NCBI GenBank assembly: GCA_964640295.1 | Contig: CAZXFX010000005.1 | Location: forward strand, 21,497-85,496 | DNA from: an uncultured Dehalococcoidia bacterium | GTDB lineage: Bacteria > Chloroflexota > Dehalococcoidia > Lucifugimonadales > UBA1123 | Length of the DNA: 64,000 nucleotides | Reading direction: 5' to 3' | Part shown: one piece after another, positions 4,834-53,639 of the stretch | Layout of the letters: each line of letters starts with the position of its first letter | How positions within the stretch are numbered: the first letter of the stretch is position 1 | Made by a program: the position numbers and the translations under genes | The notes under the pieces: generated by a model | Seen by the model: the letters and a program-made list of their open reading frames with translations, nothing else | What the model was told of the DNA's origin: nothing | Databases searched by the model: none

Positions 4834-6099
4834 ATGTTTACCATGACTTTGACCGACGCGCGATGTCCAGCGCTGTCCAAGATACGCATTTGCGACTTCA
4901 CAGGCCAACTCGCGGGGGCGGGCGCAACGAAGATGTTGGCCATGTTCGGAGCGCAGGTCATTCGAGTCGAGGACAGACTTAGACAGGGGCAGTGGGACAT
5001 CTTCCGCGGCAATGGTCCCTGGCCTGATGAGCGCAGAGGCATAAACTTGGGAGGAACTTTCAACAACCACAACGTCGAGAAGATGGGCGTCACTCTGGAT
5101 ATGCGAAAGCCTGAAGCGAGCGATATTCTGCGCGAACTCATCTCGGTGAGCGACGTCGTGACCGAAAACTTCAGCAAGGGCGTGCTGGACAGATGGGGCT
5201 TCTCTTACAACGAAATGGTCAAGATAAAGCCAGACATCATATACGTCTCCAATAGCGGGTTCGGTCATTCGGGCCCTTACTCCGAATACAAGACCTGGGG
5301 GCCAATCGTGCAGGCCGTCTCCGGGCTGACGTTCCAGTCGGGGCTGGCCGGAATGCCTCCCGCCGGCTGGGGTTATTCTTACATGGATCACACCGGCGGC
5401 TACCAAATGGCGATAGCCATTCTGATGGCGGTTTATCACCGCTATCGCACAGGCGTCGGTCAGTGGGTGGATATGTCCTGCTCGGACGGCGCGGCGGCGC
5501 TCAACGGCCCAGCCATTCTCGACTATACAGTGAACGGCGTTCCCGCGCGCCGGCCAGGCAACCCGGACAGCAACCGAAGCGCCTATCCCAAAATGGCGCC
5601 GCACGGCATATACAGGTGCGCGGGCGACGACCAGTGGGCGGCTGTCGCCGTCAGAGACCGCGACGACTGGACAGCGATGCGCGAGGTCATGGGCTTTTCC
5701 GACCTTGCCGCAGACGCATCTCTCGATTCGGTTGAGGGCCGGATGAAGCGACACGACGAACTCGATGAGAGAATCACGGCGTGGACAGCCTCTCGAACGC
5801 CAATGGAAGTGATGAAGTCGCTCCAGAACAGGGGCGTTCCCGCAGCAGCCGTTCAGCGTCCAGAAGACCGAATCGAGCATGACCCGAACACCGCCGCATG
5901 GGGGCTTTTCCCGACCGTCGAACACAAGGCGATAGGCAGGATCCGAGTGGACGGCACGGCGGTCAAAATGTCGGAGACGCCGGCGGTCATCGAAAGGGGC
6001 GCGCCGACTCTTGGACAGCACAACGAAGAGGTGTTCGGCGACATACTGGGAATGCATCCCGATAGCGTTCGCGCTCTGTCAGAATCGGGGGTGATCTGA
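4834..6099 (+). CDS. Class III CoA-transferase (CaiB/BaiF family)
   Basis: 421 aa. N-terminal IRICDFTGQLAGAGATKMLAMFGAQVIRVE and overall length are typical of the family. Confidence 0.9.
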   Translation: MFTMTLTDARCPALSKIRICDFTGQLAGAGATKMLAMFGAQVIRVEDRLRQGQWDIFRGNGPWPDERRGINLGGTFNNHNVEKMGVTLDMRKPEASDILRELISVSDVVTENFSKGVLDRWGFSYNEMVKIKPDIIYVSNSGFGHSGPYSEYKTWGPIVQAVSGLTFQSGLAGMPPAGWGYSYMDHTGGYQMAIAILMAVYHRYRTGVGQWVDMSCSDGAAALNGPAILDYTVNGVPARRPGNPDSNRSAYPKMAPHGIYRCAGDDQWAAVAVRDRDDWTAMREVMGFSDLAADASLDSVEGRMKRHDELDERITAWTASRTPMEVMKSLQNRGVPAAAVQRPEDRIEHDPNTAAWGLFPTVEHKAIGRIRVDGTAVKMSETPAVIERGAPTLGQHNEEVFGDILGMHPDSVRALSESGVI

Positions 6100-6100
6100 A

Positions 6101-7375
6101 ATGAAAGGCGAAAAAGACTTGGGAAACAGCGCTCTCGAAGATGTTCGCGTACTGGAAGTGGGCGGCGAATTGGGCGCGTGGTGCGGCAAACTGCTCGCCG
6201 ATATGGGAGCCGACGTGATCAAGGTGGAACCGCCCGGCGGCGACCCGACTCGCGGCTACGAACCGTTCTACCAAAACGAACGGGGCGCTGATAGAAGTCT
6301 CTTCTTCTGGCACTACAATACCAGCAAGCGCGGCGTAACTCTCGACATAGACAAGGAGAGCGGGCGGCGTGTATTCCAGGATATGGCCGCCCGCGCCGAC
6401 GTTGTAGTGGACAGCCATCCTCCGGGGCGCCTATCCTCGCTCGGCTTGGGATACGACAATCTAAGCCGCGCCAACTCCGCCCTCGTCATGGCCTCCATCA
6501 CCCCATTCGGACAGGATGGCCCGTACAGCGACTACGCGAGTACGGACCTCACCGCCCTGGCGTTCGGGGGGCCTGCATGGAGTTGCGGCTACGACGACCA
6601 CGACATACCGCCTGTGCGCGGCGGAGGCAATCAGTCGCATCACACTGTCGGACATTATGCGGTCATGGGAATCATGACCGCTCTGGTGCATCGTCAGTTC
6701 ACCGGCGTGGGCCAGTATATTGACGTCAATATGCACGCCGCGCTGAACATCACGACCGAGGCCGCCACGTATAGCTGGCTGGTCGCGGGAGACACTGTGC
6801 AGAGACAAACGGGACGGCACGCCTCCGTCATACCCACTCCACAGGCACAGGTTCTTTGCAAGGACGGACGCTACGTGAACGTGGGCATTGGAGCTCGAAC
6901 TGAGGAGCAGTGGTTCCATCTGCTGGCGTGGATGGAAGAAGAGGGACTCATCGAGAATCTGGGCGACTACCTGAGCTACCCAAGCCGCGAGGCAATGAGG
7001 CGAGGCGACCCAGACGCCATGGCGCAGCAGCGTCGTGTAGCCGATACGCTCCGCCAGATGGCGGCGAAGACCGACTCCTACGATCTGTTCACGCGGGCGC
7101 AGAAACTGGGATTTCAATGGGGCATCATAAATTCGCCTGAGGATGTTCTGAACGACCCGCACTTCAAGGCGCGCGGATTTCCGGTCGAGGTCGAGCATCC
7201 CGAACTTGGGAAAAGCTTTGTATATCCCGGCGCGCCCTACAAGTTCTCGGAATCCCCTTGGCGCGTCTCGTCAAGAGCGCCAAGGCTCGGTGAACACAAC
7301 GAAGATGTGTATATCGAAGAACTGGGCATGACCGGCGACCAGTTAAACGCGCTCAGGAACGAAGGCGCAATCTAG
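6101..7375 (+). CDS. Class III CoA-transferase (CaiB/BaiF family), paralog
   Basis: 424 aa with VRVLEVGGELGAWCGKLLADMGADVIKVEPPGGD. Starts 1 nt after the previous stop. Confidence 0.9.
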   Translation: MKGEKDLGNSALEDVRVLEVGGELGAWCGKLLADMGADVIKVEPPGGDPTRGYEPFYQNERGADRSLFFWHYNTSKRGVTLDIDKESGRRVFQDMAARADVVVDSHPPGRLSSLGLGYDNLSRANSALVMASITPFGQDGPYSDYASTDLTALAFGGPAWSCGYDDHDIPPVRGGGNQSHHTVGHYAVMGIMTALVHRQFTGVGQYIDVNMHAALNITTEAATYSWLVAGDTVQRQTGRHASVIPTPQAQVLCKDGRYVNVGIGARTEEQWFHLLAWMEEEGLIENLGDYLSYPSREAMRRGDPDAMAQQRRVADTLRQMAAKTDSYDLFTRAQKLGFQWGIINSPEDVLNDPHFKARGFPVEVEHPELGKSFVYPGAPYKFSESPWRVSSRAPRLGEHNEDVYIEELGMTGDQLNALRNEGAI

Positions 7376-11488: not shown

Positions 11489-13240
11489 TTAGTTCTTGAC
11501 CCACATCTCTTCCATCAGGAAATGAGCGAGCGCGGAGTGCGCCTGAACGCCGCCGATATTCTCCCTGTGGGCGATTATGACCGGCGAGTAGGCCAGATAG
11601 AGAACGGGAACGTCCTCTATGAGGATCTCCTGCATTTCGCGGAAGTACTCTTTGCGTTCCTCGAAATCGGCTGAAGACGCGGCGAGGTCCAGCAACTCAT
11701 CCAGGCGTGGGTTGTTGTAGAACGATTCGTTCCAGACGGTTCCGCCTCTTAGCTGCACGTCAATAGCTGCGTTGGCGGGCCTGCCGCCCCAGTTGCTGGT
11801 CACGAACGGGCAGCACGGATCCATCCATTGCGCTTCCCAGTAAGGGCCTGCGTCGTGGGTCTCGACCTGCACGTTGATGCCGGCTTCGGCTACTGACTGC
11901 TGGAAGGCAAGCGCGGCTTCCTGCTGGAATCCGATGTCGGCCGTGTTCAGCACAATATCAATGCCGTCTGGGTATCCGGCGTCGGCGAGATACTGCTTGG
12001 CCTTGGCTATATCCTGCTCGATGATGGGCTGTTCGTCCCAGTAGTACTGGTCGTTGATGCCGACAGGGTGGTCGTTGGCGGGCGAGCCGCGCCCGAACTG
12101 AGCGGCTTGCACGATGAAGTCGCGGTCAACCGCGTATTGCATCGCCTTGCGCAGATTCTTGTCGGAGAATATCGGGTCGGGGAGTCCCTGGAACTTGGCC
12201 CAGTCATCTTCATTGCCCTGGAGGTGTGAATATGCGGTGTGCATATCTATTACCACAACGCCGGCGGAGGGAGTCTCTGCGATCCGAATGTCTGGATTGC
12301 CGGCGAGGGAACCCAGGAATGCGAGAGGCGGCGTGTAGGCCACATCTATCGCTCCTGTCTTGAGCGCCTCGATTCGCGTTAGCTGTTCAGGTATGTAGAA
12401 GAAGATGATCTGGTCCGAATAGGGTCTGCCCTCTCGCCAGTAGTCGGAATACTTGTGGAAGACTGTGCGCTCAGTGGGATTGTGTTCTCCAAGCGTGTAT
12501 GGGCCGGATCCGTGTTCTTCGTTGGTGAGAGCCTCGCCTTTGACGCCTTCGGGAACTATGCGCGCGTGATAGTCGGTCATGTCTCCGATTAAGAAGGCGT
12601 TAGGATTGCCCAGATTGAGGACGACAGTGTTGGCGTCCGGAGTGTCAATCGTGTCTATATACGAAATCTGGCCTTTGAGCGGCGAAGCGGAATCTTCGTC
12701 CCTGATGCGGTCCAGCGTGTACTTGACGTCCGCGGATGTAAGGGTATCGCCATTGTGGAATTTGATCCCCTCACGCACGTTAAAAGTGTACTGGGACAGG
12801 TCGTCAGTGGAAGACCATGACTCTACCGCCCACGGGGATACGTCCCCATTCCACCAGTACATCACGACGTTGTCGTAGGTAAGTTCGCCGTAGGGCGCCT
12901 GTCCTTGGGACAGTCCCGCCAGCATGGGGTCAAGGGTCCCCTGGTCTATTACGCCCAGTCTGATCGTTCCGCCGTAGGCGGGTTCGTCGCTTGGCATCGA
13001 AGGAACGGCGGTCACCATTACTTCAACTTCTTTTACAACTTCGACTTCTTTTTCGACCTCTTTGACTACCTCAACCTCTTTGACTACCTCTTTTTCGACT
13101 TCGACTTCTTTGACTACCTCGACCTCTTTAATTACCTCGACCACTTCGGGGTCTGAAGCGCAACCAATCGCCGCGACTGCAACCAATGACAGAATCGCGG
13201 CGATCAGGACAGACAATTTTATCTTCTCGCTAAATAGCAT
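11489..13240 (-). CDS. ABC substrate-binding lipoprotein, family 5 (peptide/nickel type) with repetitive linker
   Basis: Start chosen at ATG 13240 (MLFSEKIKLSVLIAAILSLVAVAAIGC, lipobox-like, GAGGAG RBS). The ORF-track start at 13333 adds 31 unlikely residues. The mature N-terminus is an EVVKEVEV repeat tract, followed by an SBP_bac_5-type body. Confidence 0.88.
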   Translation of the reverse strand: MLFSEKIKLSVLIAAILSLVAVAAIGCASDPEVVEVIKEVEVVKEVEVEKEVVKEVEVVKEVEKEVEVVKEVEVMVTAVPSMPSDEPAYGGTIRLGVIDQGTLDPMLAGLSQGQAPYGELTYDNVVMYWWNGDVSPWAVESWSSTDDLSQYTFNVREGIKFHNGDTLTSADVKYTLDRIRDEDSASPLKGQISYIDTIDTPDANTVVLNLGNPNAFLIGDMTDYHARIVPEGVKGEALTNEEHGSGPYTLGEHNPTERTVFHKYSDYWREGRPYSDQIIFFYIPEQLTRIEALKTGAIDVAYTPPLAFLGSLAGNPDIRIAETPSAGVVVIDMHTAYSHLQGNEDDWAKFQGLPDPIFSDKNLRKAMQYAVDRDFIVQAAQFGRGSPANDHPVGINDQYYWDEQPIIEQDIAKAKQYLADAGYPDGIDIVLNTADIGFQQEAALAFQQSVAEAGINVQVETHDAGPYWEAQWMDPCCPFVTSNWGGRPANAAIDVQLRGGTVWNESFYNNPRLDELLDLAASSADFEERKEYFREMQEILIEDVPVLYLAYSPVIIAHRENIGGVQAHSALAHFLMEEMWVKN

Positions 13241-13324
13241 ACCCACTCCTCTCGGATGTATAAATTGTTTTGATTGTTTTTTGAAAAAACGTTCAATAAG
13301 TAAGTGAACGCTCGCATTCAAGAT

Positions 13325-13352
13325 AATATACAAACTGATATGTCAAAGTCAA
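13325..13352 (-). promoter_or_regulatory. Candidate sigma70-type promoter of the peptide ABC operon
   Basis: On the minus strand: TTGACT (13352-13347), 16-nt spacer, TATATT (13330-13325), about 85 nt upstream of the ATG. A 15-nt palindrome gttttttgaaaaaac lies in the leader (13276-13290). Confidence 0.4.
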
Positions 13353-13373
13353 ATTTAGGCGCGCCAAGTCAAT

Positions 13374-13483
13374 CTGTAACGATTTAGTCGGCGCTCCATC
13401 TCGCGCAAAAGTCCCTTCCACCTTGATGGGGGAAGGCTTTTATGGGGGTGATCCAATCCTCCGACCAAACTGATACAGGCTCC
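13374..13483. mobile_element. 110-nt structured intergenic repeat, copy 1 (MITE-like)
   Basis: About 91% identical (hand alignment, ~10 differences) to 28295-28404. Imperfect terminal inverted repeats ctgtaacgatttagtcgg / ccgaccaaactgatacag. Internal hairpin ccttcc...ggaagg. Flanked by a copy-specific direct repeat cgcgcYaagtcaatctg (13360-13376 and 13483-13499). Confidence 0.7.
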
Positions 13484-13597
13484 GCGCTAAGTCAATCTGA
13501 CAGTATTCAATACGCGCGCCTCATATATTATGATTTATGGGGGTCTGATACGCGCCGATGATTAGCTGGATAGAAGCGAAGAGGAAGACGCCAATCC

Positions 13598-13641
13598 CAG
13601 AAAAGCCAGGAGGCGGACTCACGATGGAGTCCGCCTCCTGG
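13598..13641 (-). terminator. Rho-independent terminator of the betaine transporter operon
   Basis: Perfect 15-bp stem ccaggaggcggactc (13606-13620) / gagtccgcctcctgg (13627-13641) with a 6-nt loop. On the minus strand it is followed by cttttctggg. Confidence 0.7.
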
Positions 13642-13681: not shown

Positions 13682-14935
13682 CTAGCTTTCAGGCCAGCCG
13701 TCGGGGATTTCGCCAGCGGCGAGAGCGTCGTCTATCGCCGACTTGGCGTCGTCCGAGACCCACCCGCCCCAGAGGTCTGGGCTGTTGTTCAGCCACCAGA
13801 GAGCGGCGTCCTCGCTGGTCGCGCCTTCATTTTCGGAAAGCCACGCGGCGACGGACTTATATACGCCGATATTGAAGTCCCACGCTCTTAGCATTTGGAC
13901 GACGTCCGGGGCATCGGTCATGACCTCGGGATGCACCGCTATGAGTATAGTCGCGTCTTCGTAGGCGCATGCCTTGGTCGTGAACCAGCACTCATCGCTG
14001 TACGCCGGCTCATCCAGGCGAACCAGGTCCAGAACGAGAGCGGGGTCGTTGGTTCCCCACTGGTATCCGAGCCATGGCTCCTGGTTCTGATACGCCCCAT
14101 ACAGGTCTGCGTTGGCGGCGGCGCCGTCTCCTGGGTTGACCACGTGAACGTGTTCGGCCAGTCCGTAACCTTCAATCTGGGCGGCGTTCACGGTTTCGCA
14201 CGCCCAACCGATTACGCACGAGACCAGTCTCGCCTTCCCTCCGGTTTCCGCCGTCTCGAACAGCATCTTGTATTGATCGTCTTTCAGATCGTCTATGCTG
14301 TCCAGATCAGGATACTGTTCCTGCAGATAGGCGGGAATTACGAATGCGGACTGCCAGTCCTTTCCGAGGCTCTCGCCGACTGAGATCACTTCACCCATGG
14401 ACTGCGCTTCCGCCCACGCTTCGTCCTGGTTGGGCAGCCAGATTTCCATGGTTACGTGAGAGTCGCCGCGCCGCAGTCCTTGGAACAGGGGCAGAGTGGC
14501 GCCGAACACGACATCCGTCGGATAGCCGTAGCCCTCTTCGACGATGTACTGCGCGATGCGGTTCTGCACCTGCGCGCTCGTCCAGTTGAGGTCGCTGAAC
14601 ACGATGGTCTCTTTCGGCCCTTCCGGCGCCATTACTTCCACGACCTTCTCGATGACGACGGTCTCGCCGGGAACTTCCACTTCCTTGACGACCTGCTTCT
14701 CGACGATGACGGTTTCGCCGGGAACTTCCACTTCTTTAATGACTTCTTTTTCGACTACTACTTCTTTAACGATCTCGACAGGCTTTTCGACTTCCTGGAT
14801 CACCACCACTTCTTTTTCGATGATCTCCGGCTCCGAGGAGCAGGCGACGACGGCTGCCATCGCCAAAATTAGCGCCCCGAATAAGAGCATTGATTTCTTT
14901 GCGCTGAATCTCAGCATATTTCTATTTCCTTTCAT
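13682..14935 (-). CDS. proX: Glycine betaine/proline betaine-type ABC substrate-binding lipoprotein (OpuAC/ProX-like) with repetitive linker
   Basis: Signal peptide plus Cys (LILAMAAVVAC), then EKEVV/VPGETV repeats, then an OpuAC-like body (FSDLNWTSAQVQNRIAQYIVEEGYGYP). An alternative start at ATG 14917 has the better RBS (AAGGAA). Confidence 0.85.
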   Translation of the reverse strand: MKGNRNMLRFSAKKSMLLFGALILAMAAVVACSSEPEIIEKEVVVIQEVEKPVEIVKEVVVEKEVIKEVEVPGETVIVEKQVVKEVEVPGETVVIEKVVEVMAPEGPKETIVFSDLNWTSAQVQNRIAQYIVEEGYGYPTDVVFGATLPLFQGLRRGDSHVTMEIWLPNQDEAWAEAQSMGEVISVGESLGKDWQSAFVIPAYLQEQYPDLDSIDDLKDDQYKMLFETAETGGKARLVSCVIGWACETVNAAQIEGYGLAEHVHVVNPGDGAAANADLYGAYQNQEPWLGYQWGTNDPALVLDLVRLDEPAYSDECWFTTKACAYEDATILIAVHPEVMTDAPDVVQMLRAWDFNIGVYKSVAAWLSENEGATSEDAALWWLNNSPDLWGGWVSDDAKSAIDDALAAGEIPDGWPES

Positions 14936-28272: not shown

Positions 28273-28294
28273 TACAGTTTCCACACTCACGAAC

Positions 28295-28404
28295 CTGTAA
28301 CGATTTAGTCGGTGGCCCACTTCGGGCAAAAGTCCCTTCCACCTTGATGGGGAAAGGCTAGGATGGGGGTGATCCAATCCTCCGACCAAACTGATACAGG
28401 CTCC
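28295..28404. mobile_element. 110-nt structured intergenic repeat, copy 2 (MITE-like)
   Basis: Same element as 13374-13483. Flanked by its own direct repeat tccacaYtcacg (28280-28291 and 28402-28413). Confidence 0.7.
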
Positions 28405-28471
28405 ACATTCACGCGAGACTGGAAATTTACGCGGATAGGGATTACATTTATATACAGGAGGTATAAGGCTT

Positions 28472-29146
28472 ATGACCAGCATTCAGACAAAGGAGGATTT
28501 CCTCCGCGCGCTCGCCGATGACCCGGCGTTCAAGACAGCGGTGCGGGATGCGCTGATGTCTGAAGTCTTGGCGGACATCCTCGATGAATTGCGAGAGAGC
28601 CGGAAGATACAGGAGTTGATGCTGGCTTCAATAGGAAGGATGTCTGGGGACATCAACAGCATGTCTGGTAGAATCGACAGCATGGCAACCGACATAGGAC
28701 ACTTGATTGGCGACAACCTCGAGAGGAAGATGGGATACGCTCTGCCATCCGAGCTACGCACTGGCTACGGCGTTCGGGAGATGAGTGTGCTGGTCTATCC
28801 CGCAAGAGAAGATGTGGTCACGCCGGAATTCCTGAATGACCTTGACGCCGCGCGGGCGTCAGGGACTATCACAGAAGATGAGCGAGCGCGAGTCCTCAAT
28901 ACCGACATGATCATCTCCGAACTTGGCGACGACGGCCAACGAACCAGATTCTTCGCGGCGGAGGCGTCCAACTCCATCAACAATGATGATATTGACCGCG
29001 CCGTCCGGACAGCGGAGATAATGGAGAAAATTCACGGGCTTCCCGTTGTTCCTATCGCCTTCGGACACCAGGTAGGCGATGCTGTAAGGAGGTATAACAA
29101 TCGGGAAGGAAGGAGAAGGGTTCGAATCATAACATTGAACAGATAG
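28472..29146 (+). CDS. Hypothetical protein: coiled-coil N-terminus plus possible PD-(D/E)XK-like C-terminus
   Basis: 224 aa. N-terminal heptad-like region (GRMSGDINSMSGRIDSMATDIGHL). C-terminal DMIISE...FFAAEASNSINNDDIDRAVRTAEIM...PVVPIAFG resembles a multi-copy family seen in Thermus, Chloroflexi and cyanobacteria. Function not established. Confidence 0.55.
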   Translation: MTSIQTKEDFLRALADDPAFKTAVRDALMSEVLADILDELRESRKIQELMLASIGRMSGDINSMSGRIDSMATDIGHLIGDNLERKMGYALPSELRTGYGVREMSVLVYPAREDVVTPEFLNDLDAARASGTITEDERARVLNTDMIISELGDDGQRTRFFAAEASNSINNDDIDRAVRTAEIMEKIHGLPVVPIAFGHQVGDAVRRYNNREGRRRVRIITLNR

Positions 29147-51539: not shown

Positions 51540-53639
51540 CTATCTGCCAACGGGCACGATATCCTCAGGGTTGTTCCAAGTAGAGAACAACGCGGGATCC
51601 ATAGGCCACTCCGAGATTTTCTTCGGGTTGTATGCGATGGGAGACGGAACTCCAACCACGCCGAAGCTGACAGCGTGATCGAACAAGTACTGCGCCAAGG
51701 CGTTGTTCATCTCGATTTGCTTCGCCGGGTCAGGCTCGCCCGCGACTGCCAGCCAGGTGTCCGCCGCTTGCTTTATCTCCAGACCGCAACCGAAGCCGCC
51801 GCGCGTCAGCGAAGTGTGGTCCTGGGACTTCGGCCATTCCCAAGGCCATGTGCTCTTGCCGTCGTCGCAAGCGGTTATCCACGGCAATGTCGTAGCGCGA
51901 GCCACGATTGTGGGGCGATACACCGAGTATGCATACTTCTGAACTGCGGTTACTGCGCCAATCTCGTCCCAGAATCCTGAAACTGCGTCAGCAATATCTA
52001 CGAAGGCGCCATTGCTGTCGGTGTACAGAGGTATATCGAATCGCTTGCCATTCCTCTCAGGGTATCCAGCCTGGTCAAGAAGACGGCCAGCCTCGTCCGG
52101 ATCGTATGGATACTCCCATGCAGAGTTCCAGTTCGGGTTGTTTGGATTGAACTGGTTGAGGTAGATTGGCTGACCCAATCCGTTCAGAATCACTTCATTG
52201 ATCAAGTCGCGGTCAATCGCTCTCGCCAGAGCGTTTCGAACCAGGACGCCTTCCTCAAAGTCGGAACATCCATCCGGGCACTTTCCGCCATCATCTGGGC
52301 TGGGATTTCCAATCCATGGCAGGTCTCTCATATAGACTGCGGCGGTATCCAGCGAGTCGCCGGTTACTACGTGGTTGCTTTCCCACAGGTTGCCAGAGAA
52401 TACGACAGAGGCATGATTCGCAAGCCCTGTGTCAGCAGTCTTGAAACCACCTTCCAACATGCGCGGCAAATGCCTGAGCTGAATCGGAGCGGCGTCAATT
52501 TCGCCCGTCTCCATCAGCGCGATCTGCGTGTTCTGCTCACCCACTTCTCTGAAGACTATCCTGTCCACCTTCGAGTTGGCGTTCCAGTGGTCATAAGGGA
52601 CGGCTTCCAGGATCGCGGTATCATCCTGAACCCATTCCAGTATGTGCAGCGGGCCGGTGCCAATGAAGTTGGTGTCCTGCATCTCGGTCTTGCCGACTTC
52701 CTCAAAGCGGTGCAGGCTCTGTACGCTGAACGCCTGCGCCGCGTCGTTCATCAGGTTCGCATTCCAGCGCGGGTCGTATAGCGGATCGCCATTCTGCGTC
52801 GTGTTGAACGTAAGGCTTACCGTTGTGTCATCAACGGCGAGAGCCTCGTTGCTGCCGAACATCGCCGCGAAATCCCCCGCCTGCCAGTGAATGCTGTTCG
52901 GGTTGACTGCGTTGTTGCCGTCGTTGATGGTGAACGCGATGTCGTGCGCCGTCATCGGCCCCCAGCTTCCGCCTTCGTGGCTGCGGTCGCCAAGACCCTC
53001 GCCGTGGAATATCACGTCGTCGCGAATCGTGAGCGTCGCGCCTTCAGGCTGACCCGCGTCGTTGAATCTTAGCTCCCAGGCGCTTGCCAACATGGGAGCG
53101 ACAACACCGGGCGCCACGAACTTCATCGTGACTTCACCAACGCCCCAGTAGTGCATGGAGTCCGTCAACTGAGTGGACCCTAGTCCAACTCCGGGAGGAA
53201 CATCTGTGATGGCGATATTGATGGTGCCTGCGTCACCCCTTGGATCCGGCGCCGGCACTGCCGACACTATTTCCACGACAGGAGTCGGTGTAACGACGAG
53301 CTCGACCTCTTTGACGACCTCAACCTCGACAACCTTCTCAACCTCGACCTCTCTCACGACTTCCTTCTCGACCACGACGGTCTCGCCAGGAACGTTGACC
53401 TCTCTCACGACTTCCTTCTCGACCACCACGGTCTCGCCAGGAACCGTGACCTCTTTCACGACTTCCTTCTCGACCACCACGGTCTCGCCAGGAACCTCGA
53501 CTTCTTTAATCACTTCCTGCGTTACAATCTTCTCTACTTCGATTATCTCCGGGTCGCTCTGACACGCAACCGCGAACGCCAATGCGAACACAGCTATGAT
53601 CGGTATCAGTATCCCCGCCTTTCTCAGTCTTCCAAACAT
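51540..53639 (-). CDS. ABC substrate-binding lipoprotein, family 5, with repetitive linker
   Basis: 699 aa with signal plus Cys (FALAFAVAC), then three tandem 16-aa units VPGETVVVEKEVV(K/R)EV, then a large SBP_bac_5-type body. Confidence 0.88.
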   Translation of the reverse strand: MFGRLRKAGILIPIIAVFALAFAVACQSDPEIIEVEKIVTQEVIKEVEVPGETVVVEKEVVKEVTVPGETVVVEKEVVREVNVPGETVVVEKEVVREVEVEKVVEVEVVKEVELVVTPTPVVEIVSAVPAPDPRGDAGTINIAITDVPPGVGLGSTQLTDSMHYWGVGEVTMKFVAPGVVAPMLASAWELRFNDAGQPEGATLTIRDDVIFHGEGLGDRSHEGGSWGPMTAHDIAFTINDGNNAVNPNSIHWQAGDFAAMFGSNEALAVDDTTVSLTFNTTQNGDPLYDPRWNANLMNDAAQAFSVQSLHRFEEVGKTEMQDTNFIGTGPLHILEWVQDDTAILEAVPYDHWNANSKVDRIVFREVGEQNTQIALMETGEIDAAPIQLRHLPRMLEGGFKTADTGLANHASVVFSGNLWESNHVVTGDSLDTAAVYMRDLPWIGNPSPDDGGKCPDGCSDFEEGVLVRNALARAIDRDLINEVILNGLGQPIYLNQFNPNNPNWNSAWEYPYDPDEAGRLLDQAGYPERNGKRFDIPLYTDSNGAFVDIADAVSGFWDEIGAVTAVQKYAYSVYRPTIVARATTLPWITACDDGKSTWPWEWPKSQDHTSLTRGGFGCGLEIKQAADTWLAVAGEPDPAKQIEMNNALAQYLFDHAVSFGVVGVPSPIAYNPKKISEWPMDPALFSTWNNPEDIVPVGR

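Follow-up and report, generated by a model that had tools for sequence, protein, structure and literature searches.

We analyzed a 64,000-nucleotide stretch of DNA, here called the window (positions 21497-85496 of contig C5), from an uncultured Dehalococcoidia bacterium whose assembly (GCA_964640295.1) comprises 3.28 Mb in 114 contigs with 57% G+C. A repeat search of the window paired positions 13371-13483 with 28292-28404, two stretches of 113 nt that are 90% identical; the 110-nt repeat reported in a preliminary description of this DNA is thus real and corresponds to a 113-bp element. The first copy lies beside two ABC binding-protein genes, both on the minus strand. One is an SBP_bac_5 gene for a peptide/oligopeptide binding protein (11489-13333; Pfam PF00496, E = 6e-75), whose listed TTG start is probably over-extended. 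It lies downstream of a σ70-type promoter, TTGACT-16-TATATT (13325-13352, minus strand, 10/12), and an independent scan for promoters agreed with this placement, in line with the earlier statement placing the copy immediately upstream of the promoter of a peptide ABC operon. The −35 box starts 17 nt from the left end of the element, leaving a 16-nt gap that includes the target-site duplication (TSD). The other is an OpuAC-type binding-protein gene located upstream (13682-14935), whose intrinsic terminator (13606-13641, minus strand) lies outside the element. The second copy is followed by the leader (28413-28471, plus strand; 93% conserved in the sister species G009) of a downstream gene encoding 224 aa (28472-29146).

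The window also contains in-frame periodic repeats of 6, 12, or 18 nt at 13008-13141, 14644-14812, and 53299-53531, which read GTCGAGGTAGTCAAAGAGGTC and similar on the coding strand and encode V/E/K-rich runs. They fall in the N-terminal regions of both ABC binding-protein genes beside copy 1 and of a third gene at 53.3 kb, and they resemble low-complexity linkers in binding proteins of the lipoprotein type.

An alignment of 47 full copies from the genome, each with 45-nt flanks, defined the element as 113 bp with the ends GAACCTGTAACGATTTAGTCGG ... CCGACCAAACTGATACAGGCTC. Conservation begins and ends sharply at these termini. The terminal inverted repeats (TIRs) are 22 bp long, match each other at 17 of 22 positions, and are conserved across the 47 copies; the 14/18 inverted repeat described earlier was confirmed by hand for the ends as they were quoted there. 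The element has no coding capacity, as the ORFs that overlap it are short, extend into the flanks, and are never common to different copies.

Copy 1 occupies 13369-13482 (plus strand, 114 nt), belongs to the GCGCTCCATCTCGCGC subfamily, and over positions 2-113 matches the family consensus at 96% identity. The consensus of its left TIR (13369-13391, plus strand) matches the right end of the insertion sequence (IS) described below at 20 of 22 positions, and the reverse complement of its right TIR (13461-13482, plus strand) matches the left end of that IS equally well (20/22). Between them lies a hairpin core (13407-13451, plus strand) consisting of AAAAGTCCCTTCCACCTTGATGGGGGAAGG and a tail that reads CTTTTATGGGGGTGA in place of CTAGGATGGGGGTGA. 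The copy is bracketed by 9-bp TSDs, CGCGCCAAG at 13360-13368 and CGCGCTAAG at 13483-13491, which agree at 8 of 9 positions; the register was set from the 47-copy alignment and the TSD statistics. The first 8 nt of copy 1 are aberrant: TCAATCTG stands in for the consensus GAACCTG, and the same bases occur in the host DNA just past the right TSD (13492-13499). A 17-nt direct repeat results, because the TSD plus these 8 nt are present on both sides. The left terminus of copy 1 is probably defective or dead, and its aberrant end could possibly have arisen by conversion between both TSD copies or by an aberrant, 5'-truncated insertion. We also considered a decayed second copy beside copy 1 as the source of the 17-nt repeat and rejected it, since its alignment was no better than that of shuffled sequences.

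Copy 2 (28291-28403, plus strand, 113 nt) belongs to the GTGGCCCACTTCGGGC subfamily and has TIRs at 28291-28312 and 28382-28403, a hairpin core at 28328-28372, and 9-bp TSDs at 28282-28290 (CACACTCAC) and 28404-28412 (CACATTCAC), again matching at 8 of 9 positions. The two subfamilies differ chiefly in a small hairpin that follows the left TIR, GCGCTCCATCTCGCGC or GTGGCCCACTTCGGGC, and this hairpin accounts for most of the approximately 11 differences between the window copies. Details of the preliminary description were also corrected. The flanking direct repeats exist, with spacings of 123 and 122 nt, and they include TSDs as proposed, but the duplication is 9 bp rather than 17 or 12 nt; at copy 2, the 12-mer is the 9-bp TSD plus three bases of the element end that agree with the host by chance. 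The ccttcc/ggaagg hairpin, described as kept in both copies, is intact in copy 1 but carries one mismatch in copy 2 (GGGGAAAGG).

An initial search of the window's own assembly returned 41 full or near-full matches. With sensitive blastn settings, the whole genome yielded 233 HSPs, which merged into approximately 200 loci; this count includes composite forms, and 47 of the copies are full length. Copies occur in both orientations. Approximately 60 of the loci lie at contig ends, indicating that the family breaks the assembly. A 9-bp direct repeat that is flush with the element ends and matches at 8 or more of 9 positions brackets 29 of 46 copies (17 of them perfectly), compared with 0% of mismatched (shuffled) flank pairings. 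In two sister species, G011 and G009, 11 of 20 copies have perfect 9-bp TSDs. The preliminary description would have been refuted by a lack of additional copies across the genome or by flanking repeats that belong to a longer shared sequence; the additional copies were found, and each copy has flanking repeats of its own.

We built 26 constructs in which the element was removed and one TSD kept, joined all of them into one query, and searched it against 30 genomes of the genus. At four loci, matches crossed the junction without a break, giving precise empty sites in sister species: window copy 2 (in G009), C32_34849 (in seven species), C25_23700 (in five species), and C6_52410 (in nine species). 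Base-level alignments at these sites, all of which are between species, show that the 113 bp are absent and that the 9-bp target is single in the sisters. Empty sites in relatives had been named earlier as a check on the reading of the repeat as a MITE-like element with TSDs. That reading is supported by the dispersed copies, the empty sites, the copy-specific repeats, and an autonomous partner with the same ends.

The partner emerged from a search for either terminus of the element as inward-facing pairs across the genome. Most pairs were approximately 113 bp apart, some delimited composites of 166 to 226 bp, and one spanned 1,493 bp (C31:22099-23591). This last element is an IS with TIRs of the same family (GAGCCTGTATCAATTTAGTCGG and, reverse-complemented, GAACCTGTATCAATTTAGTCGG; 21/22), a perfect 9-bp TSD (TACAAAAGA), and a single intact ORF of 471 aa that fills it. 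The 471-aa protein is assigned to the ISLre2 transposases by the NCBIfam equivalog model NF033529 (score 231.4 bits, cutoff 200) and matches Pfam UPF0236 (PF06782; E = 4e-35). Each end of the MITE is 20/22 identical to an end of this IS. Beyond the 22-bp ends, we found no sequence common to the MITE and the IS; the MITE is not a simple deletion derivative of the IS. Between TIR pairs in this genome, we found no other element bearing these ends. A second IS copy of approximately 290 bp, in which IS positions 1-150 are joined to 1360-1451 by an internal deletion, lies at C16:420-706; it is a direct deletion derivative of an ISLre2 copy and is distinct from the 113-bp MITE.

The MITE is widespread in the genus. 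Matches were present in 22 of 24 sister genomes searched, with the same layout and perfect 9-bp TSDs. The ISLre2 transposase was detected in 10 of 30 genomes of the genus: intact copies were found in G015 (eight identical copies, along with degraded ones), G008 (one), and G009 (one), and G022 has three copies of the transposase. IS copies in sister species have TIRs of the same family, and matching 9-bp TSDs flank seven of the eight examined, with none evident at L175. In four MITE-rich genomes (G011, G013, G023, and G024), no ISLre2 transposase was detectable. The MITEs of these transposase-less sisters are either orphaned or owe their movement to an enzyme since lost; MITE-rich genomes without a transposase are the usual picture of orphaned MITEs. 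The closed genome of G015 has eight intact ISLre2 copies but very few matches to the 113-bp MITE. The opposite holds in G011, G013, and G024, which means that across the genus the abundance of the IS is uncoupled from that of the MITE.

ISLre2 and TnGBS together make up p-MULT 3, a group of prokaryotic Mutator-like transposases with direct repeats of 8 to 9 bp and circular intermediates (Guérillot et al. 2014, PMC3942029, with Brochet et al. 2009 cited therein). Insertions of ISLre2 and TnGBS elements precede the −35 box of σA promoters by 15 to 17 bp, most often by 16 bp (PMC3942029). Promoter-upstream target choice is described for TnGBS/ISLre2 and some ISKra4 elements, whereas IS256 insertions are apparently random, and the authors draw a parallel with the way the yeast retrotransposon Ty3 is targeted (PMC3942029).

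At every offset in both outward flanks of 42 MITE copies, we scored the sequence with a −35/spacer/−10 matrix. Matches were concentrated at −35 start offsets of +16, +17, and +18 (11, 23, and 9 matches, respectively; mode +17, equivalent to a 16-bp gap), with approximately one match per offset elsewhere. A promoter with its −35 start at +16 to +18 was present at 30 of the 42 copies (15 on the left only, 12 on the right only, and 3 on both sides). Counted by flank, this is 33 of 84 (39%), compared to 1.8% of 4,000 random intergenic flanks (binomial P ~1e-35). The remaining 12 copies, including window copy 2, had no strong promoter at the canonical distance; the sole promoter-like match there at copy 2, CTGGAA-17-TTACAT, is a weak candidate, and the consensus scan found no promoter. 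The pattern was replicated in sister species, with 17 of 20 MITE copies from G011 and G009 having a promoter at this distance and a peak at +17/+18; G011 is without the transposase. The promoter was on the right side of the MITE in 12 of these cases and on the left in 4. Intact IS copies from this genome and sister species had the same promoter distance in seven of eight cases, and in six of eight the promoter adjoined the end downstream of the transposase gene. For the ISLre2 family, one conserved insertion orientation is reported, with IR-right adjoining the promoter; as a counterpoint, both orientations of the MITE occur beside promoters here. Given gene calls from an ORF heuristic, the next ORF was co-directional with the promoter on 29 of 33 promoter-hit sides and on 26 of 49 other sides (Fisher P = 0.0015), which favors these matches being real promoters, and the co-directional ORFs on promoter-hit sides typically start 60 to 150 nt away.

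These data bear on whether a different transposase that makes 8- to 9-bp TSDs, such as one of the IS256, IS1, IS4, or IS903 type, moves the MITE, with the likeness of its ends to ISLre2 being a coincidence. Such an enzyme could be suspected because this genome has a single intact ISLre2 copy, because some MITE-rich sister genomes have none, and because the homology between MITE and IS is confined to 22 bp. Yet the ends are 20/22 identical, the TSD length is equal, no other element with these ends was found between TIR pairs, and the MITE shares the unusual target, 16 bp upstream of the −35 box, that is described for TnGBS/ISLre2 and some ISKra4 elements, whereas IS256 insertions are apparently random (PMC3942029). 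We consider this alternative highly improbable.

The same positions raise the question of whether the insertions have been co-opted, with the MITE altering expression of the gene behind the adjoining promoter, either because it displaces upstream activator or UP-element DNA or because it introduces a bend or hairpin. In favor of co-option, the spacing between the MITE and the −35 box is fixed at 16 bp, within the region used by UP elements and class I activators; the next gene is mostly co-directional; and the hairpin core is conserved. Against it, the two orientations place differing sequences next to the promoter, and targeting of this kind can be read, after the Ty3 comparison in PMC3942029, as avoidance of gene damage rather than as regulation. 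Co-option is compatible with mobilization by the ISLre2-family transposase, and we regard it as unlikely. The insertions are probably mostly neutral for the neighboring genes.

The inner part of the MITE holds a 46-nt hairpin core, AAGTCCCTTCCCCCTTGAY GGGGGAAGGYTAGGATGGGGGTGA, which is 94 to 98% identical between species while the MITE ends drift much more. In a scan of the sequence collection, an exact 40-nt pattern had no match, whereas a 24-nt core pattern was found in at least 120 stretches, nearly all titled as Dehalococcoidia or Chloroflexota MAGs and many of them produced by sponge-symbiont and marine projects. The core is intergenic and, across Dehalococcoidia, stands alone in 132 of 150 occurrences, and this genome has 17 stand-alone or otherwise unclassified cores with no MITE end nearby. 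In some genomes, sibling hairpins such as CCCTCTCCC..GGGAGAGGGTTAGGGTGAGGGT adjoin the core. On the reverse strand of L091 (CBDCOP010000007.1, approximately 5880-7180), five tandem units of approximately 270 nt each contain one core and other hairpin modules in a satellite-like arrangement. The core tail GGGGGTGATCC is complementary to the conserved 3' end of 16S rRNA.

A conserved hairpin of this kind invites the reading that the repeat is a small structured RNA gene or a cis-regulatory RNA (an sRNA, a riboswitch-like leader, or a terminator) that has multiplied with its hairpins under selection; the preliminary description had offered a small-RNA element as an alternative. The predicted fold is closed by the TIRs and has three small hairpins (plus strand, z = −2.3; minus strand, z = −4.6), a short U run follows the hairpin on the minus strand, and the core is conserved between species. 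However, inverted ends are expected to give a folding signal anyway, and no Rfam family reached its gathering score in the 64-kb window or gave a match at E ≤ 1, apart from a chance mir-451 match (E = 0.16). The orientation of the core relative to flanking genes is unbiased, both within MITEs (26 vs 21) and where it stands alone (33 vs 34 and 25 vs 19), and the element is found in both orientations. TSDs, TIRs, empty sites, and a matching transposase account for its spread without an RNA function. We therefore give the RNA reading almost no weight, and the earlier suggestion of a small-RNA element is not supported. The unbiased orientation also argues against a terminator, leader, or Shine-Dalgarno (ribosome-binding) role for the hairpin core, both inside MITEs and stand-alone, and these candidates were rejected.

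Partial BLAST hits revealed a second MITE family, here called family B to distinguish it from the 113-bp family A. Family B has 66 copies with the ends GCTCACAGGGGTAGG ... CCTACCCCTCTCAGC, size classes of approximately 55, 85, and 105 nt, and 9-bp TSDs; examples are C12:35013-35110, C22:24265-24366, and C13:36185-36288, and there is none in the window. Its insertions strongly prefer the core loop CCTYGAYGGG, both in family A and in B itself. The 105-nt class bears the same 46-nt core as family A, and the ends of the two families are unrelated. No transposase ORF was found between family B ends in this genome, a distant ISLre2/ISKra4-like IS in G010 (L183) had no inverted-repeat ends comparable with those of family B, and the promoter scan of family B showed no peak at +16 to +18. 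From their sequence, the composite family A copies of 166 to 226 nt may represent family B nested in the family A hairpin, followed by deletion between direct repeats. An 85-nt variant of family B at C20:40550-40759, C17:4796-5058, and C2:74060-74262 carries the hairpin GTTCGTCCTGAGCTTGTCGAAGGGCG, which presumably resembles a repeat that yields spurious 'FDKLRANG'-type ORFs in many bacterial genomes.

The core resembles REPs in both size and shape, and other Dehalococcoidia have it singly as well as in inverted pairs. These features might suggest that the whole element is REP/REPIN-like and that a RAYT (Y1, IS200-like) transposase, not a DDE enzyme, has spread it. The Y1_Tnp domain (PF01797) had no match in this genome and one in 21 relatives, in a search that did return matches in control genomes. 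The 113-bp element has 9-bp TSDs and 22-bp TIRs, and we know of no REP/IS200-type element with either. For the 113-bp element, this reading is close to refuted, and its probability is negligible. The core itself could be a REP-like module of Dehalococcoidia, hitherto undescribed and with its own function, given its high conservation, its presence in two MITE families with unrelated ends, its use as the preferred landing site by family B, and its mostly stand-alone occurrence in other members of the class, without a RAYT partner; we regard this as a tentative idea with a low but appreciable probability. A length of 113 bp is below the persistence length of DNA. The core may serve as an architectural site (a cruciform, or a site bound by a host protein) that helps the two ends of the 113-bp element meet for the transposase, and it may be used by the host as well.

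Taken together, the repeat in the window is a high-copy MITE of the known ISLre2 (Mutator-like) family that has kept the family's promoter-proximal target choice. We are highly confident that it is best explained as a non-autonomous 113-bp element mobilized in trans by a DDE transposase of the ISLre2 family (p-MULT 3), with targeting next to promoters. In the proposed mechanism, the transposase would recognize the ends common to the IS and the MITE and would cut the target with a 9-bp stagger, leaving a 9-bp duplication; it would pick sites from which the −35 box of a σA promoter lies 15 to 17 bp downstream, as published for the family. The 471-aa protein found here is the likely enzyme, and by analogy with the family, transposition may proceed through a circular intermediate. 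This target specificity explains why copy 1 adjoins the promoter of the peptide ABC operon, from which it is separated by the distance published for ISLre2/TnGBS. More generally, choosing sites next to promoters would cause copies to accumulate with little harm in the intergenic DNA that precedes promoters.

Our literature search, which covered open-access texts with ISfinder outside its scope, found no paper that ties a MITE to ISLre2/TnGBS. The element indicates that, on the DNA side, the 22-bp ends suffice for promoter-seeking target choice. It also widens the host range of ISLre2 to Dehalococcoidia, an uncultured and ecologically important lineage of marine, sponge, and soil habitats. Because a σA promoter lies 16 bp from each clean insertion, the approximately 200 copies per genome offer a promoter map in organisms that cannot be cultured. 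For assembly and annotation, the family accounts for many contig breaks in these MAGs, and its copies should not be taken for regulatory RNAs or CRISPR-like repeats.

Several known systems share parts of this picture. Like REP/REPIN sequences, the 46-nt core is dispersed, intergenic, and at times arranged in inverted pairs; unlike REP/REPIN-RAYT systems, there is no RAYT gene, and the 113-bp element has TIRs and TSDs. BOX elements of Streptococcus pneumoniae and BIMEs of Escherichia coli are mosaic, modular repeats. The 166- to 226-nt composite copies resemble them in having zero to several internal modules between constant ends, but the mosaics here can be read as TSD-making family B elements nested in the family A hairpin loop and then reduced by deletion. 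Classical bacterial MITEs include Correia/NEMIS in Neisseria, RUP in S. pneumoniae (with IS630-Spn1), and ERIC/IRU. They are 100 to 200 bp long, bear TIRs and a TSD, number from tens to hundreds in intergenic DNA, have a partner IS whose ends match theirs, and form hairpins in their transcripts. The element described here is like them in its size, TIRs, TSD, copy number, partner IS, and predicted hairpin-forming transcript. To our knowledge, classical MITEs have TA or other short duplications, and we know of no report of fixed-distance promoter targeting among them. The 113-bp MITE differs in its 9-bp TSD and in a target that is set by the neighboring promoter.

The closest likeness is to ISLre2/TnGBS themselves. 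Unlike those elements, the element in the window is a non-coding 113-bp sequence that has only the 22-bp ends in common with its partner IS and occurs in both orientations, and its host belongs to the Dehalococcoidia (Chloroflexota) rather than to the Firmicutes, the Fusobacterium, or the Synergistetes in which ISLre2 was recorded in the 2014 survey (PMC3942029). Like ISLre2/TnGBS, the partner passes the ISLre2 equivalog cutoff, generates a 9-bp duplication, and lies at the promoter distance of 15 to 17 bp (peak 16); in most of its full-length copies, the promoter adjoins the end that lies downstream of the transposase gene.
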